From an uncultured Pseudomonadales bacterium (GTDB taxonomy: Bacteria; Patescibacteriota; Microgenomatia; UBA1400; PJMF01): 27,963 bases of DNA. The position numbers were made by a program, and so were the translations under genes. This document shows, piece by piece, positions 6,136 through 27,963 of this stretch. The stretch spans positions 1 through 27,963 of the forward strand of contig CAZFIY010000001.1 of NCBI GenBank assembly GCA_964519685.1, given 5' to 3'. The notes below the pieces were generated by a model that was given only the letters and a program-made list of their open reading frames with translations, did no database searches and was not told the DNA's origin. How positions within the stretch are numbered: the first letter of the stretch is position 1; each line of letters begins with the position of its first letter.

Positions 6136-6161
6136 AGCCCCGCTTAAACGCGGGGCTTTTT
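6136..6161 (+). terminator. Intrinsic terminator
   Basis: AGCCCCGC-ttaaac-GCGGGGCT followed by TTTT. Confidence 0.9.
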
Positions 6162-18292: not shown

Positions 18293-20194
18293 ATGTCAGA
18301 TTTATCTCTCATTCGACAAAAATATCTAACTTATTTAGGTGGTTTGGGGCACGCCATTGTGCCTTCCGCTCCTTTGGTGCCAGAAAATGATCCTACGACG
18401 CTTTTCACCAGTGCTGGCATGCAATCGATGATTCCTTATTTTTTTGGTGCTGCTCATCCGGAGGGTAAGAGGGTGGCGAATTCCCAGAAATGTTTTAGAG
18501 CCGATGATATTGATGAAGTGGGTGACAACCGTCACACTACTTTTTTTGAAATGTTGGGCAATTGGTCTTTTGGTGATTATTTCAAAAAAGAGCAGATTAC
18601 TTTGTTGTTTAATTTCTTGACTCAAGAATTGAAATTAGATCCTAACAAGCTTTATGTGTCAGTCTTTGCTGGTAATCAGGAATTGGGAATCAAGAGAGAT
18701 GATGAGGCGGCTTTATTGTGGCAAAAACTATTTACTGATGCCGGAGTAGAGGCCAAAATCATTGACAATCCTGAAGCTGGTTTGCAAGACGGTCGCATTT
18801 TCTTTTATGGTGAGCAAAAAAATTGGTGGTCTCGTTCTGGAGTGCCAGCTAACATGCCGGAAGGTGAGCCAGGTGGTCCAGACAGCGAAGTTTTTTATGA
18901 TTTTGGGGAAGTGACTAGTGTTGAAGCCGCAAAAATGCATCAAGAACACCCGTGTCACATTAACTGTGATTGCGGTAGATTCTTGGAGATTGGGAATTCT
19001 GTTTTCATGCAGTACCAAAAAACTGCTGACAAGTTTGTACCCTTAGCTCAAGCTAATATTGATTTTGGTGGAGGATTGGAAAGAATTTTAGCTGCTTATC
19101 AGCATCAACCAGATATTTTTAAAACGGTGGCTTTTTGGCCAATCATCGACAAAATTCAGTCTTTGACGTCTTTATCATATGAGGACGATGCCAACAAAAA
19201 ACACTTCCGCATTATCGCTGATCACATGAAAGCCGCGGTGATGCTCATGTCTGATGGGGTTTTCCCTTCGAGTAAAACTCAGGGTTATGTTTTGCGTCGT
19301 TTATTGCGTCGAGCTCTGCGTCAAGCTAATTACTTGAGCATTGAACAAGAAACTTTAGTGGAATTGGTGCCAATTATTGTCGAGATTTATGCAGATTTTT
19401 ATCCCGAACTCAAAACTCAGCAAGCCAACATTTGTCAATTAATTCAAGCTGAGCAACTTAAATTTAGTCGCAGTCTCAGTAAAGGTTTGAAGGAATTTGA
19501 TAAATTGTTGGAAAATCAAAGTGTGTTTACCGCAGAAATAGCTTTTTATTTATATGAAAGTTTTGGTTTTCCTTTCGAGATTTCTCTTGAGGAAGCGCAA
19601 AATCGTCACTTGCAAATTGAGACTGATTTGGAAAAAAAATATCAACTCAAAAAATCTGCTCACGCTCTCACTTCCAAACAAGCCAATCAAGCTCAATTCA
19701 AGAGTGGTTTGGCAGATGAGAGTGAAACTACCACTAAATATCATACCGTGACTCATTTGTTACATGCAGCCTTGCGTCAAGTGCTTGGCGAAAGCGTGCA
19801 ACAAAAAGGTTCTAATATTACTGCTGAGCGTTTGCGTTTTGATTTTTCTTATCCACGAGCCTTGAGTGAAGAGCAAAAGCAACAAGTGACTGATCTTATC
19901 AATCAATGGATTGAGGCTGATTTTCAGGTTGATAAACAAGTTTTAGCAAAAAAAGAGGCTTTAAACTTGGGCGCAATTGCTTTATTTGTCGATAAATATC
20001 CAGATGTCGTTAATATGTATTCAATTGGCCCCAACCCTCAAGGCAATCGCCAAGGCATTGACTACATTTCTCGTGAACTTTGTTCTGGTCCTCACGTTGA
20101 GCGCACTGGAGTGATTGGTCAGATTGTTTTAGCCAAAGAAACAGCAGTGGCTGATGGAGTGAGAAGAATATACGCTCTTCAAAAAATGCTTTAA
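18293..20194 (+). CDS. alaS: Alanine--tRNA ligase, short form lacking the C-Ala domain
   Basis: DPTTLFTSAGMQ, HTTFFEMLGNWSFGDYFK, EIGNSVFMQY, IDFGGGLER, editing motifs HTVTHLLH and CSGPH, GVRRI. Confidence 0.97.
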   Translation: MSDLSLIRQKYLTYLGGLGHAIVPSAPLVPENDPTTLFTSAGMQSMIPYFFGAAHPEGKRVANSQKCFRADDIDEVGDNRHTTFFEMLGNWSFGDYFKKEQITLLFNFLTQELKLDPNKLYVSVFAGNQELGIKRDDEAALLWQKLFTDAGVEAKIIDNPEAGLQDGRIFFYGEQKNWWSRSGVPANMPEGEPGGPDSEVFYDFGEVTSVEAAKMHQEHPCHINCDCGRFLEIGNSVFMQYQKTADKFVPLAQANIDFGGGLERILAAYQHQPDIFKTVAFWPIIDKIQSLTSLSYEDDANKKHFRIIADHMKAAVMLMSDGVFPSSKTQGYVLRRLLRRALRQANYLSIEQETLVELVPIIVEIYADFYPELKTQQANICQLIQAEQLKFSRSLSKGLKEFDKLLENQSVFTAEIAFYLYESFGFPFEISLEEAQNRHLQIETDLEKKYQLKKSAHALTSKQANQAQFKSGLADESETTTKYHTVTHLLHAALRQVLGESVQQKGSNITAERLRFDFSYPRALSEEQKQQVTDLINQWIEADFQVDKQVLAKKEALNLGAIALFVDKYPDVVNMYSIGPNPQGNRQGIDYISRELCSGPHVERTGVIGQIVLAKETAVADGVRRIYALQKML

Positions 20195-20212: not shown

Positions 20213-20378
20213 ATAAAGTTCTGCACTTTAATACAGTCACATTCAACTAAAATTGTTTGCTTTTTGTAAGTTAACAATCTTTGTCTCATTCAGTGAAGTC
20301 GCTGTTTACTTAGTGAGTGCCAACCTTTGCTAATCAGTCAGCTCCTTCAATGGACTGTATCAAAGTGCAGAACTTTAT
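20213..20378 (+). ncRNA. Candidate structured ncRNA (6S RNA-like rod); alternative: MITE-like element
   Basis: 20213-20238 pairs with 20353-20378 (25 of 26 bp), extended by CATT/AATG. Encloses an open central region and apical stems. Confidence 0.55.
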
Positions 20379-24001: not shown

Positions 24002-24982
24002 ATGCTTAAAAAACTGCCAAAATTTTTTCTTTTATTATTTTCTTGCCTTGTCATCTTAGTGCTTTTATTTGTTTTCTTTGTCAATCTTTTTCAAGCTCCC
24101 TCAAGCACTGACCAGCAAGCAACGCGTTTTGTCATTCCCAAAGGTCAAGCTTTATCAATCATTGCAGAAAGACTTGAGGAGGAAAACTTGATCAAAAATA
24201 AATGGGCTTTTCGTCTTGCGGTTTATAAAAATAATTTGTCCAATAAAATCCAGGCAGGTAGTTTCGAACTGTCAGCTGGCATGAACACTTGGCAAGTCGC
24301 TCAAGCTTTAACTGTTGGTACCAATGATTTGTGGATTACTTTACCAGAGGGATGGCGTAGGGAAGAAATGGCAGAGAGTTTAGCCAAACAAGGTTTAAAT
24401 AATTTCAAAACAGAGGAATTTCTTAGTTTGAGTAAAGGTTTGGAGGGTCAATTATTCCCAGACACTTATTTAGTACCAAGAGAAGTAACTAGTGCTCAAT
24501 TAATATCTTTGCTTAAAAACACTTTTGCCACTAAAGTGACTACCGCTATGAGCGAGGAGCTTGCAAATAATAAAATGAGTTTAAATGAAGTTCTAAGCTT
24601 GGCTTCTCTAGTACAGAGAGAAAGTGCCAATGACATAGAAATGCCACTTGTGGCGCAGATTTTGCTTAATCGTTTAGAAATTAATATGCCTTTACAAGTC
24701 GATGCAACCCTACAATACGTCAAGGGTTATAACAAAATAGAAGAATCTTGGTGGCAAACTCCGTTGGCAGATGACAAAAAATTAGAGTCTCTTTACAACA
24801 CTTACAAATACGCAGGTTTACCTCCTGGACCAATCTGTAATCCAGGTTTAGCAGCTATTAAAGCTGTACTTAAACCCAGTGCCACTAAGGCCTTTTATTA
24901 TATTCACGATAAAAGTGGTAAAATTCATACAGCCAATACTTTGGAAGAACACAATACTAACGTAAATAAATACTTGCGCTAG
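24002..24982 (+). CDS. mltG: Endolytic transglycosylase MltG
   Basis: N-terminal TM, ITLPEGWRREE, LEGQLFPDTY, ASLVQRES, LQVDAT, YNTYKYAGLPPGPICNPG. Confidence 0.95.
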   Translation: MLKKLPKFFLLLFSCLVILVLLFVFFVNLFQAPSSTDQQATRFVIPKGQALSIIAERLEEENLIKNKWAFRLAVYKNNLSNKIQAGSFELSAGMNTWQVAQALTVGTNDLWITLPEGWRREEMAESLAKQGLNNFKTEEFLSLSKGLEGQLFPDTYLVPREVTSAQLISLLKNTFATKVTTAMSEELANNKMSLNEVLSLASLVQRESANDIEMPLVAQILLNRLEINMPLQVDATLQYVKGYNKIEESWWQTPLADDKKLESLYNTYKYAGLPPGPICNPGLAAIKAVLKPSATKAFYYIHDKSGKIHTANTLEEHNTNVNKYLR

Positions 24983-25002
24983 AGATTTTTTACTGTTATA
25001 AT
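24974..25002 (+). promoter_or_regulatory. Strong predicted sigma70 promoter for rpoB
   Basis: TTGCGC (24974-24979), 17 nt, with extended TGtTATAAT (24994-25002). Confidence 0.8.
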
Positions 25003-25008
25003 AGCCAA

Positions 25009-25230
25009 TTGTCTAAAAAGACTTAAGTAAAAAGCTAGCAGAAAAAACAAAGAGATTGGTGCCTTTAGTTTTTATAAAACAACTAAGTAAGTAGTTCGTT
25101 TCACACAGCGTTATCGAGCATAAGCTGTGTTTTTTTGCTTTGTTCATCTGATTTTACTTAGATCTTTCTAGAAACTTAAAAGTAGCAATTGAGGAAATAA
25201 TTAAGCATTTAAGCTAAAAAGGAATTTTTC
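25009..25230 (+). promoter_or_regulatory. Structured rpoB 5' leader containing a terminator-like hairpin
   Basis: ACACAGC/GCTGTGT hairpin (25103-25130) followed by T6. Nested helices 25024-25032/25152-25160 and 25046-25052/25138-25144. Confidence 0.6.
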
Positions 25231-27963
25231 ATGCCACAAAAAGCAAAACGCCAAAATTGGGGTCAAAAACATCAGATTTTACCAATCTTAGATTTAATCA
25301 AACTCCAAAGTGAAAGTTATCAAGACTTTTTAGATCATGGCATTGCAGAAGCTCTCAAAGAAGTTAACGGCGTTAAGGGCATTGAAGATTTTACCGGTAA
25401 AAACTGGTCACTTACTTTTGGTCAATATCGTTTTGGCGAAGCTAAATATACTCCAGCTCAAGCAAAATCAAAAAATGTTTCCTATGATATGCCTCTTTAT
25501 GTTGAAGCTACTCTTTTAAATAAGAGAACAGAAGAAGAGCGCACTCAAGAAGTTTTCCTTGGTGATATTCCTAAAATGACTACCACAGGTAATTTTATTA
25601 TCAATGGTATCGAAAGAGGAATCGTTACTCAATTAGTTAGATCTCCTGGTGTTTTCTTTTTAGGTGAGGAAGATTCTGCTAGTAAACAATTGTTATATAA
25701 AACTGAACTTCGTCCAATGCGTGGTTCTTGGCTAGAAATCACTGTTTCTCGTCGTAATGTCATCACTGTCAAAATTGACCGTCGTCGCAAGATGCCTGTC
25801 ACTGTTTTACTGAGAGCTTTTGGCTATGAAAGTAATGATGATATTGCTAACTTATTCACTGATGTCCTTAAGAAAGACAAGTTAGATTTGCTTAATAACA
25901 CTTTGAAAAAAGATTCCACCACCAATCAAGCTGAAGCTTTGATTGAGATTTACGAAAAAATGAGACCTGGGGAGCCAGCTGTTCTCGATACTGCTCGTGA
26001 ATTTTTGAATCACATGTTCTTCGATGAGAGACGTTACGATCTTGGTGAAGTTGGTCGTTACAAAGTTAATCGTCGTTTGAAAATTGAAGTTGATAAGAAA
26101 AAAACCATTTTAGATCCTCAAGATCTAGTTGCTGCAATTGGCTACTTAATTGCTTTGCAAAATGGCGAAGGCAAAGTTGATGATATTGACCATTTGTCTA
26201 ACCGTCGCGTACGTCGTGTGGGTGAATTAGTTGCCGGCAACGCTTTCCGCATTGGCTTGATTCGTTTGGAGAGATCTATCCGTGAAAAAATGTCTTTAAC
26301 CAAAACTGATGAAATTTTAACTCCATCAGCTTTAGTTAATGCTCGTCCTTTAATTGCGGCTGTGTCTGAATTTTTCCGTCGCAACCGTTTATCTGCAATT
26401 TTAGATCAGACCAATCCTTTGTCTGAAGTCGATAACTTGCGTCGTTTATCCGTGATGGGTACTGGTGGTGTGACTCGTGAACGTGCCAGTTTCTCTATGC
26501 GTGATATTAACGCTTCTCAATACTCTCGTATTTGTCCAATTCGCTCCCCTGAGGGTCCAAACATTGGTTTGGTGACTTATTTGTCACTCTATACCAGAGT
26601 TAATGACTATGGTTTCTTAGAAGCTCCTTATCTTAAAGTTGCGAACATTAAAGGTAAGATGAAAATCACTGATGAGATCGTCTATTTAAGTGCTGATGAA
26701 GAAGAAGATTATCACATTACTCACGCTAGTATTGGAATTAGTGATGATAACTACATCACCGAAGATTGGATTCCAATGCGTTTCAGAAATGAATTCATTG
26801 AAAGCAGCGTTGAAGAAGTTGAATACATCGACGTTGTCCCAAGACAAGTTGTCGGTAGTTCTGCTTCCTTAATTCCTTTTATTGCTCACGATGAAGCTAA
26901 CCGTGCTTTGATGGGTTCTCATATGCAATGTCAGGCTGTGCCTCTAGTTAAAGCTCAGGCTCCAGTAATTGGTACTGGCATGGAAGCAGAAATTGCTGCT
27001 GCCATGGGTCGTACTATCTTGGCTCCATTCGACGGTGTCGTTGATTACGTTGATAGCAGTAGAGTAGTTCTTAAATTAGATAAAAAATTCCACGACAAAG
27101 CTAAGTCTTTTGTCGAAGTAACTAATAACGAATTAATCACTCTTGATAAAGGATCTATTGCATATAAGTTGTCCAAATACATGAGAACTTCTCAAAGTAC
27201 CTGTTTCTCTCAAAAGCCAGTGGTTAAAATTGGTCAAGAGGTGAAAAAAGGTGATGTTTTGATTGATGGTCCAGCTACTGATCAAGGTGAATTATCTTTG
27301 GGTACTAACTTACTCATTGCTTATACCTCATTTAATGGCTTGGGTTATGAAGATGCTTTGGTTATTTCAGACCGTTTGGTTAAAGAAGATACTTTAACTT
27401 CTATCCAAATCAGTGAACACAAATCCAAAGTTATGGATACTCGCTTAGGACCGGAAGAATTAACTAATGATATTCCAAATGTTAGCGAAACTTTCTTGGC
27501 TAACTTGACTGTCGACGGTATTATCCGTATTGGTAGTCACGTTAAATCAGGTGATATCTTAGTTGGTAAAGTTGCTCCCAAGGGTGAAACTGAACTTTCT
27601 CCAGAAGAGAGATTACTTAGAGCTATCTTTGGTGAAAAATCTAAAGAAGTTCGTGATACTTCCTTACGTATTCCTCATGGTGAAGAGGGTGTAGTTATTG
27701 ACGTTCAAGTGCTCGATCGCGATTTGGGTGACGAACTTGATCCAGGTACTATTAAAGAAGTGATCGTTAAAATTGCTGAAATGAGAAAAATTACCGTTGG
27801 TGATAAGCTCGCTGGTCGCCATGGTAATAAGGGTGTTATTTCCAAAATTGTTCCAGCAGCTGACATGCCTCATTTAGAAGATGGCACAGCAGTTGATATC
27901 ATTATTTCTCCACTTTCTGTCTTGGCTCGTATGAACCTTGGTCAGCTACTTGAAACTCATTTG
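25231..27963 (+). CDS. rpoB: DNA-directed RNA polymerase subunit beta, 5' part (runs off the window)
   Basis: My translation: LDLIKLQSESY, GDIPKMTTTGNFIINGIER, DQTNPLSE, ICPIRSPEGPNIGL, DEANRALMG, GDKLAGRHGNKGVIS, RMNLGQ. AAGGA SD upstream. Confidence 0.98.
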   Translation, partial: MPQKAKRQNWGQKHQILPILDLIKLQSESYQDFLDHGIAEALKEVNGVKGIEDFTGKNWSLTFGQYRFGEAKYTPAQAKSKNVSYDMPLYVEATLLNKRTEEERTQEVFLGDIPKMTTTGNFIINGIERGIVTQLVRSPGVFFLGEEDSASKQLLYKTELRPMRGSWLEITVSRRNVITVKIDRRRKMPVTVLLRAFGYESNDDIANLFTDVLKKDKLDLLNNTLKKDSTTNQAEALIEIYEKMRPGEPAVLDTAREFLNHMFFDERRYDLGEVGRYKVNRRLKIEVDKKKTILDPQDLVAAIGYLIALQNGEGKVDDIDHLSNRRVRRVGELVAGNAFRIGLIRLERSIREKMSLTKTDEILTPSALVNARPLIAAVSEFFRRNRLSAILDQTNPLSEVDNLRRLSVMGTGGVTRERASFSMRDINASQYSRICPIRSPEGPNIGLVTYLSLYTRVNDYGFLEAPYLKVANIKGKMKITDEIVYLSADEEEDYHITHASIGISDDNYITEDWIPMRFRNEFIESSVEEVEYIDVVPRQVVGSSASLIPFIAHDEANRALMGSHMQCQAVPLVKAQAPVIGTGMEAEIAAAMGRTILAPFDGVVDYVDSSRVVLKLDKKFHDKAKSFVEVTNNELITLDKGSIAYKLSKYMRTSQSTCFSQKPVVKIGQEVKKGDVLIDGPATDQGELSLGTNLLIAYTSFNGLGYEDALVISDRLVKEDTLTSIQISEHKSKVMDTRLGPEELTNDIPNVSETFLANLTVDGIIRIGSHVKSGDILVGKVAPKGETELSPEERLLRAIFGEKSKEVRDTSLRIPHGEEGVVIDVQVLDRDLGDELDPGTIKEVIVKIAEMRKITVGDKLAGRHGNKGVISKIVPAADMPHLEDGTAVDIIISPLSVLARMNLGQLLETHL

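Follow-up and report, generated by a model that had tools for sequence, protein, structure and literature searches.

The mechanism that sets the level of RNA polymerase (RNAP) is, to our knowledge, understood in very few bacteria, and we know of none for the CPR/Patescibacteria, whose members cannot be cultivated on their own. In Escherichia coli, rpoBC output responds to the performance of the polymerase. A different use of terminator read-through is seen at sib/tI of phage lambda, where the terminated RNA lacks the full stem and read-through RNA alone completes a long substrate of RNase III, an enzyme whose usual minimum is about two helical turns. The rplJL-rpoBC transcript of E. coli is subject to attenuation and RNase III processing, according to the account of Barry, Squires and Squires (1980) as cited in PMC5371410. 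In Streptococcus pyogenes, the Lacto-rpoB RNA lies between pbp1b and rpoB, where a promoter and a terminator of its own are predicted (PMC4829319), and yields an RNase III–dependent fragment (PMC4829319; PMC5389636).

Here, we analyzed a 27,963-nt stretch of DNA from an uncultured bacterium of the Patescibacteriota (contig CAZFIY010000001.1; hereafter, the window), following up a reading made from its letters alone (the sequence-only reading), which had proposed a large nested RNA structure with an internal terminator in the rpoB leader. Comparison with the sequences of relatives indicates that a real, conserved, and structured cis-regulatory leader with a terminator-like hairpin lies upstream of rpoBC. 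We lean, with moderate confidence, toward the interpretation that this leader of the rpoBC mRNA is a cis-acting, leaky attenuator of transcription, enclosed by a stem that would form only on read-through.

Locus, promoter, and distribution of the leader

The genome to which the window belongs (G000) comprises 0.70 Mb in 79 contigs and is 95.6% complete. A 248-nt gap separates its YceG/MltG gene (24002–24982) from rpoB, whose ATG is located at 25231; both genes were identified with Pfam. The features of this region are as follows:

24974–25002, plus strand: rpoBC promoter, with the −35 element TTGCGC (24974–79), a 17-nt spacer, and the extended −10 element TGT-TATAAT (24997–25002)
~A25008, plus strand: predicted transcript start, placed from the −10 element only
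25008–25058, plus strand: A-rich 5′ arm (AUUGUCUAAAAAGAC UUAAGUAAAAAG CUAGCAGAAAAAACAAAGAG...), partner of the 3′ arm in minimum free energy (MFE) and duplex folds
25059–25094, plus strand: conserved core, ~45 nt, with a frame from GUG 25059–61 to UAG 25092–94
25103–25136, plus strand: intrinsic-terminator–like hairpin (lower stem ACACAGC/GCUGUGU, upper stem UUAU/AUAA) and U7, −10.2 kcal/mol
25137–25172, plus strand: 3′ arm of the long-range stem (GCUUUGUU, UCUG, UUUUACUUAG, UCUUU, UAGA), transcribed only on terminator read-through
25181–25233, plus strand: rpoB-proximal block of the 5′ untranslated region (5′ UTR), conserved in the alignment, with the Shine-Dalgarno sequence AAGGA (25219–23) and the ATG (25231–33)

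The promoter that the sequence-only reading had placed ahead of the leader is present. Its −10 element is consensus and carries the TG extension, but its −35 element matches at only three of six positions, which is why a simple promoter scanner did not call it. All 19 leaders that we collected contain TGnTATAAT or TGnTACAAT at a fixed distance of 17 nt from TTGCGY, and the overlap of the −35 element with the last mltG codons is seen again in several further genera of the family. At loci L038, L041, L042, and L043, for instance, TTGCGY coincides with the last mltG codons (Tyr-Leu-Arg, then stop), and an extended −10 element is found exactly 17 nt downstream. Since the −35 element is built from these codons, protein and promoter both constrain how mltG ends. 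Neither a promoter scan nor the leader alignment revealed a conserved second promoter between the terminator and rpoB, in agreement with what had been surmised; each genome may have a weak promoter of its own in its AT-rich 3′ arm. In the window, most genes lack a recognizable Shine-Dalgarno sequence, rpoB with its AAGGA being an exception, and some (e.g., those starting at 18293 and 20398) have TATAAT only 8 to 15 nt before the ATG and look leaderless.

BLAST found the leader DNA as a single copy in its own genome. All 12 congeners with an assembled locus have the leader between mltG and rpoB; three other congener genomes have a contig break at the locus and are therefore outside the 12. A pattern scan of metagenomes added 3 further close relatives, one of them from activated sludge. 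When a covariance model built from the leader was run on 140 genomes of the family, it matched once per genome in the same genus and in four of the eight genomes of a second genus, with no match elsewhere among the 140. The second-genus element is again arranged as mltG-leader-rpoB, and the two genera have in common the promoter, AUUGUCUAAAAAGAG, UAGCAGAA, GUG.CUUU.GUU, AAAACAACUAAUUAA, and the hairpin followed by U7 and GCU. The 19 leaders comprise 15 at the genus level (12 from congeners and 3 from metagenome contigs) and 4 from the second genus. A dispersed palindromic repeat or MITE is ruled out by the finding of one copy per genome with both BLAST and the covariance model.

With the outlying species G012 and G014, the G011 5′ arm, and the near-identical G010 3′ arm omitted, identity to the window sequence within the genus is 85 to 100% for the promoter, 5′ arm, core, and hairpin with U7; ~93 to 98% for positions 1 and 2 of rpoB codons; 61 to 76% for third positions; and, in most congeners, 41 to 62% for the 3′ arm, i.e., the stretch after the terminator. 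The corresponding values for the omitted parts are 68% for the G011 5′ arm, which carries a 22-nt insertion, 93% for the G010 3′ arm, and 27 to 35% for the 3′ arms of G014 and G012. The insertion in G011 (L009, ~424–445) is a perfect hairpin of its own (AGACUUGU GCG ACAAGUCU), and the remaining leader is intact. Pairing alone does not account for how strongly the sequences of the 5′ arm and core are conserved. The 3′ arm could not be aligned by MAFFT; a reading of the MAFFT result in which the outer helices are spurious and the 3′ arms unconserved was discarded, because separate folds show that the pairing is retained.

No Rfam family reached its gathering score in the window or at 18 related loci, and cmscan of positions 24900–25330 with E values up to 10 gave no match to Lacto-rpoB, a T-box, a riboswitch, or 6S RNA. 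The lack of a Lacto-rpoB covariance-model match even at this threshold bears out the earlier view that the two elements are unrelated, and the leader is indeed undescribed for this lineage as far as Rfam and the literature searched are concerned. Several other identities were considered and rejected. For 6S RNA, there was no RF00013 match in the region or the genome, and the fold is multibranched with an internal terminator. SRP RNA was considered because none was detected in the genome; two features argue against it, the restriction of the element to two genera and the absence of the domain IV motifs. A 44–amino acid open reading frame on the minus strand (25013–25147) has 1- and 2-nt indels inside it among congeners.

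As a side result, searches of G000 gave no match to RF00169 or RF01854 for SRP RNA or to TIGR00959 or PF00448 for an SRP54-type GTPase (Ffh or FtsY). The DTAGR motif is absent from all frames longer than 200 amino acids, and tblastn with E. coli Ffh yielded a best E value of 0.37 compared to 1e-25 for the RplS control. With PF00448, all 14 control genomes were positive, whereas no match was obtained in 41 genomes sampled from the order, 81 from the class, or 61 from the phylum.

Pairing between the two arms of the leader

Each of the four nested helices proposed from the single sequence was found where it had been placed: AAAGA 25017–21 with TCTTT 25163–67, TAAGTAAAA 25024–32 with TTTTACTTA 25152–60 (nine of nine), CAGA 25039–42 with TCTG 25147–50, and AACAAAG 25046–52 with CTTTGTT 25138–44. 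These helices surround the hairpin ACACAGC 25103–09/GCTGTGT 25124–30. Of the two hairpins said to be enclosed, the one at 25103–25130 is kept among relatives, but the one at 25077–25101 is broken in several congeners. The inner hairpins UUUAGUU/AACUAAG and AACUA/UAGUU, which are disrupted in some genomes or in the second genus, were rejected as conserved parts. A small 5′ hairpin, GUCU/AGAC, is a possible alternative for the 5′ arm in terminated RNA. Folded alone, the leader of the window has an MFE of −46 kcal/mol (z = −1.12), and 29 of 200 shuffles were equally good. Since A- and U-rich runs pair readily and the single-sequence fold is unremarkable, support has to come from the leaders of relatives.

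In the MFE folds of 13 of the 15 genus-level leaders, the 5′ end (nt 2 to 47) closes onto the stretch directly past the terminator. The 3′ sequences used for this closure differ from genome to genome: the stem is formed by AAAGA/UCUUU and UUAAGUAAAA/UUUUACUUAG in G000, by UAAAAGGGAC/GUUCCUUUUA and GAGUAGAAA/UUUUUACUU in G004, by GAAAAAACAAAG/CUUUGUUUUUUC in G009, by UCAAGUAAAA/UUUUAUUUGA in the metagenome leader M176, and by CGAAGUACUGAC/GUCAGUAUUUCG in G012. Within the second genus, G083 and G084 have the long-range stem in their MFE folds; G082 and G088 keep the inner helices only. The energy of the duplex between the 5′ and 3′ arms was then compared to that obtained with 300 dinucleotide shuffles of the 3′ arm. 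The arm duplex was better than the shuffles, with z values from −2.3 to −5.7, in 11 of the 15 genus-level leaders; taken singly, it was not significant in G006, G007, G012 (p ~0.05 in a repeat test), G014, and all four second-genus leaders. Because the test fails there, we regard the outer stem as firmly supported only for the core of a single genus.

Compensatory changes were counted in two alignments, whose pair counts lean toward structure because the alignments were fitted to it. In the 14-sequence alignment, 90.4% of cells were paired and 10 pairs had changed on both sides, compared to 3.1 in shuffles; in the 19-sequence alignment, 88.7% of cells were paired, and 23 of 41 pairs had changed on both sides, compared to 7.2 ± 2.0 in shuffles. 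Nineteen of these 23 pairs are located in the three helices that join the two arms. None of 500 shuffles reached any of the five pair-count measures, and slid controls were 34 to 58% paired. Covariation, on which the sequence-only reading had made its proposal depend, thus supports the nested outer helices, and the pair counts are higher than in all shuffled and slid controls. The 19-leader alignment contains many G-U pairs, and covariance models score the reverse strand at 26 to 34 bits compared to 204 to 212 bits for the forward strand, indicating a plus-strand RNA and not a DNA palindrome.

The G000 stem has ~30 pairs in all, and its outer 19 pairs are broken only by two 1×1 mismatches. The long stem requires the 3′ arm, which is encoded past the U-tract, and can therefore form only in read-through RNA. 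The genome encodes RNase III (249 bits, above the cutoff), RNase J, and RNase Y. Because the stem offers approximately two nearly uninterrupted turns of double-stranded RNA and the genome has the enzyme, the stem is a suitable candidate substrate of RNase III; cleavage itself is a prediction. Long AU-rich stems of unrelated sequence around a hairpin and U-tract are also found at L041 (genus g9) and L045 (genus g8). As this architecture is the same, stems of the enclosing type may exist in more genera than the two with model hits.

These results bear on a reading in which the hairpin is simply the terminator of an alaS-ruvX-mltG operon, the stem reflects chance AT-rich complementarity or the remnant of a palindromic mobile element, and there is no leader function. 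There is no other terminator between the mltG stop codon and the hairpin, so the hairpin would also stop transcripts coming from upstream, and the single-sequence fold is, as such a reading would have it, not significant. However, it leaves unexplained the extended −10 promoter conserved in two genera between mltG and the hairpin, a noncoding core better conserved than synonymous sites, and the compensatory changes between the arms, and we consider it very improbable. The remnant version also conflicts with the single copy of the element in every genome and with the finding of only 7- to 10-nt chance matches to the repeat of this genus at 20213–20378.

The conservation pattern could also be taken to mean that the promoter and terminator bound a stand-alone small RNA (sRNA) gene. 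The ~128-nt product would act in trans, its single-stranded 5′ arm and core binding a protein or other RNAs, and rpoB would depend for its transcription on read-through or an unrecognized promoter. The promoter-to-terminator unit is the most conserved part of the locus, the 5′ arm and core are conserved beyond the needs of pairing, and attenuator-derived RNAs can work in trans, as exemplified by what PMC6614838 states on rnTrpL. Yet the element is always located directly upstream of rpoB, in the same orientation and with no conserved promoter after it, and its 3′ arm coevolves with the 5′ arm, which is sensible only if the read-through RNA matters. We therefore regard an sRNA gene as quite unlikely to be the explanation; moreover, an sRNA function would add to attenuation and not exclude it.

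The terminator and the short GUG frame

The 7 + 4–bp hairpin followed by U7 has the stem-loop and U-tract of an intrinsic terminator and is kept in 19 of 19 leaders. The U-tract, given as U6 in the sequence-only reading, is part of a run of seven T residues (25130–36), the first of which closes the stem. The lower stem is invariant (98.5% paired across the 19 sequences) and, since it never varies, provides no covariation, while all four pairs of the upper stem have changed on both sides. Canonical GC-rich terminators are present at gene ends of the window (21 compared to 13.1 ± 3.7 in shuffles). A strong bidirectional one, with an 8-bp stem containing seven GC pairs and A- and U-tracts on both sides, is found at 6136–6157 after the gene of a 67–amino acid basic protein. 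Given that the genome uses intrinsic terminators and that no conserved second promoter follows the hairpin, attenuation is a plausible reading.

An antiterminator had been suggested in which the A-tract (25037–49) pairs with the U-tract. This pairing, AGCAGAAAA with UUUUUUGCU, does occur in MFE and consensus folds, but it is nested with the terminator hairpin and not exclusive of it. Being nested, and needing GCU (25137–39), which is made past the release point, it cannot compete with termination, and we abandoned this part of the model. A search for upstream partners of either arm of the terminator found no RNA antiterminator. The duplexes were mostly weak and varied from one genome to another, with energies of −3 to −6 kcal/mol for partners of the 5′ hairpin arm and −4 to −8 kcal/mol for partners of the 3′ hairpin arm; the sole duplex to reach the −10.2 kcal/mol of the hairpin, at −10.7 kcal/mol, was in one second-genus leader. 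Thus, the antiterminator helix mutually exclusive with the terminator stem that characterizes riboswitches and trp-type attenuators was not found in these leaders. With no RNA structure found to compete with the terminator, it is probably the transcription and translation machinery itself that sets the efficiency of termination. Either the performance of the polymerase and Nus factors or a ribosome on a short frame could play this part, which would result in homeostatic feedback.

Such a frame is present. All 19 leaders contain an invariant GUG (25059) and an open frame of 11 to 12 codons, whose stop is located 5 to 10 nt before the terminator stem; in G000, the frame has 11 codons (MPLVFIKQLSK, GUG 25059–61 to UAG 25092–94). 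Just ahead of the terminator, at 25083–94, a cluster CUAAGUAAGUAG has stops in all three frames and could keep translating ribosomes away from the terminator. At the corresponding site, leaders of the second genus carry CUAAUUAA or CUAAUUGA.

The coding status of the GUG frame is equivocal. If the frame is translated, a ribosome at its stop codon might cover the foot of the stem and cause read-through, in which case RNAP synthesis would follow translational capacity. The frame is open in 19 of 19 leaders and its stop is kept as UAG, UAA, or UGA; the few synonymous changes in it (AGU/AGC, AAG/AAA, and CUA/CUC) and the 3-nt length of the indel in G012 are also what would be expected of a coding sequence. 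A possible ribosome-binding stretch, AAAGAG, is located in the 5′ arm and would be free only before the long stem forms, and its weakness is no objection because most window genes are without a strong Shine-Dalgarno sequence. However, zero synonymous change is found in the first nine codons within the genus, whereas third positions of rpoB are 61 to 76% identical, which argues for a constraint on nucleotides. Furthermore, the conserved AAAACAACUAA falls in a different register of the frame in the second genus, and a 1-nt shift in G088 rewrites the C-terminal half of the peptide. With the all-frame stop cluster and with two of the three frames from the GUG open in G000, a frame of 10 codons is expected, by our estimate, in approximately 4 of 10 AU-rich stretches. 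The distance from stop to stem is likewise two-sided: a spacer of 5 to 10 nt suits a ribosome that covers the stem foot, but at 8 to 10 nt, a terminating ribosome would reach only 0 to 2 nt of the stem. Overall, we consider ribosome-mediated attenuation possible but doubtful.

Terminator-like hairpins upstream of rpoB are not confined to these two genera. In a crude scan of 18 further regions upstream of rpoB, taken from other genera and families of the order, 15 had a hairpin and U-tract. The 15 hairpins have different sequences, and the enclosing covarying stem and conserved core are found only in this genus and one neighboring genus. Several of the hairpins are only 11 to 30 nt from the ATG, which leaves no room for a promoter. 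Just past the promoter, loci L047, L048, L051, L052, and L053 from other families have a conserved hairpin, AGGCRUA...UAYGUCU, followed by AUUUUU, with compensatory changes between GCGUA/UACGU and GCAUA/UAUGU; this hairpin is probably an order-wide terminator of rpoB leaders. Together with the leader described here, the order-wide hairpins suggest that attenuation in the rpoBC leader may be a general CPR strategy, which, if true, would replace the rplJL coupling of model bacteria.

Proposed mode of action and comparison with known systems

In the attenuator model that we favor, RNAP would start at the promoter overlapping the mltG stop codon and produce the ~128-nt conserved leader. A fraction of polymerases would stop at the hairpin and U7 (25103–25136) and release a short RNA, which would cap rpoBC output; the leader probably limits polymerase synthesis. 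Polymerases that read through would synthesize ~35 nt more, and this stretch would zip onto the A-rich 5′ arm from approximately nt 2 to 5 of the transcript. The resulting imperfect stem, of ~30 pairs in G000 and nearly continuous over two full turns, would enclose the core and the terminator hairpin and would mark full-length transcripts only. Most likely, it would be an entry site for the encoded RNase III, separating the leader from the rpoBC message. Alternatively, it may hide the 5′ end from RNase J, since in several genomes, the stem starts at nt 2 to 5 of the transcript and would shield that end.

The two possible control points could be combined. A ribosome on the leader frame would mask the terminator, and RNase III would cut the stem of read-through RNA as at lambda sib; we regard this two-checkpoint control of RNAP as unlikely. 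If true, it would mean that RNAP output follows translational capacity and that the RNase III cut sets the lifetime of the rpoBC message and frees the core as a small RNA, in bacteria whose rpoBC is separated from the ribosomal-protein operon.

Whichever agent sets the efficiency of termination in the attenuator model, the element is a well-delimited candidate RNA family, with a promoter, a core, a terminator, and a coevolving closing stem, and is fit for inclusion in RNA databases. The kind of control that we propose is already known from E. coli and streptococci, and its form here is undescribed in Rfam and the literature searched.

The closest parallel in position is Lacto-rpoB, a family recorded in Rfam for Lactobacillales. 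Both are structured RNAs in the rpoB 5′ UTR in the same orientation (here, 25008–25230, with the ATG at 25231), both are located downstream of a gene of a cell-wall enzyme (pbp1b there and mltG here), and both have their own predicted promoter and terminator as well as double-stranded regions, RNase III processing having been shown for Lacto-rpoB. They differ in sequence, which is unrelated, and in lineage, and here a long-range stem encloses the terminator.

In its proposed function, the leader resembles the rplL-rpoB attenuator of E. coli, where a partial terminator before rpoB is also coupled with RNase III processing of the read-through RNA, as we propose here. However, the E. coli attenuator lies within the rplKAJL-rpoBC operon, whereas the rpoBC genes studied here have a promoter of their own. 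In E. coli, moreover, a separate local hairpin serves as the RNase III site, whereas the stem of the leader is made of the 5′ end of the transcript and a stretch past the terminator. The logic of a stem completed only in read-through RNA is that of lambda sib/tI retroregulation. While sib is located 3′ of int and destroys the upstream message, the stem described here is located in a 5′ leader and has no homology to it.
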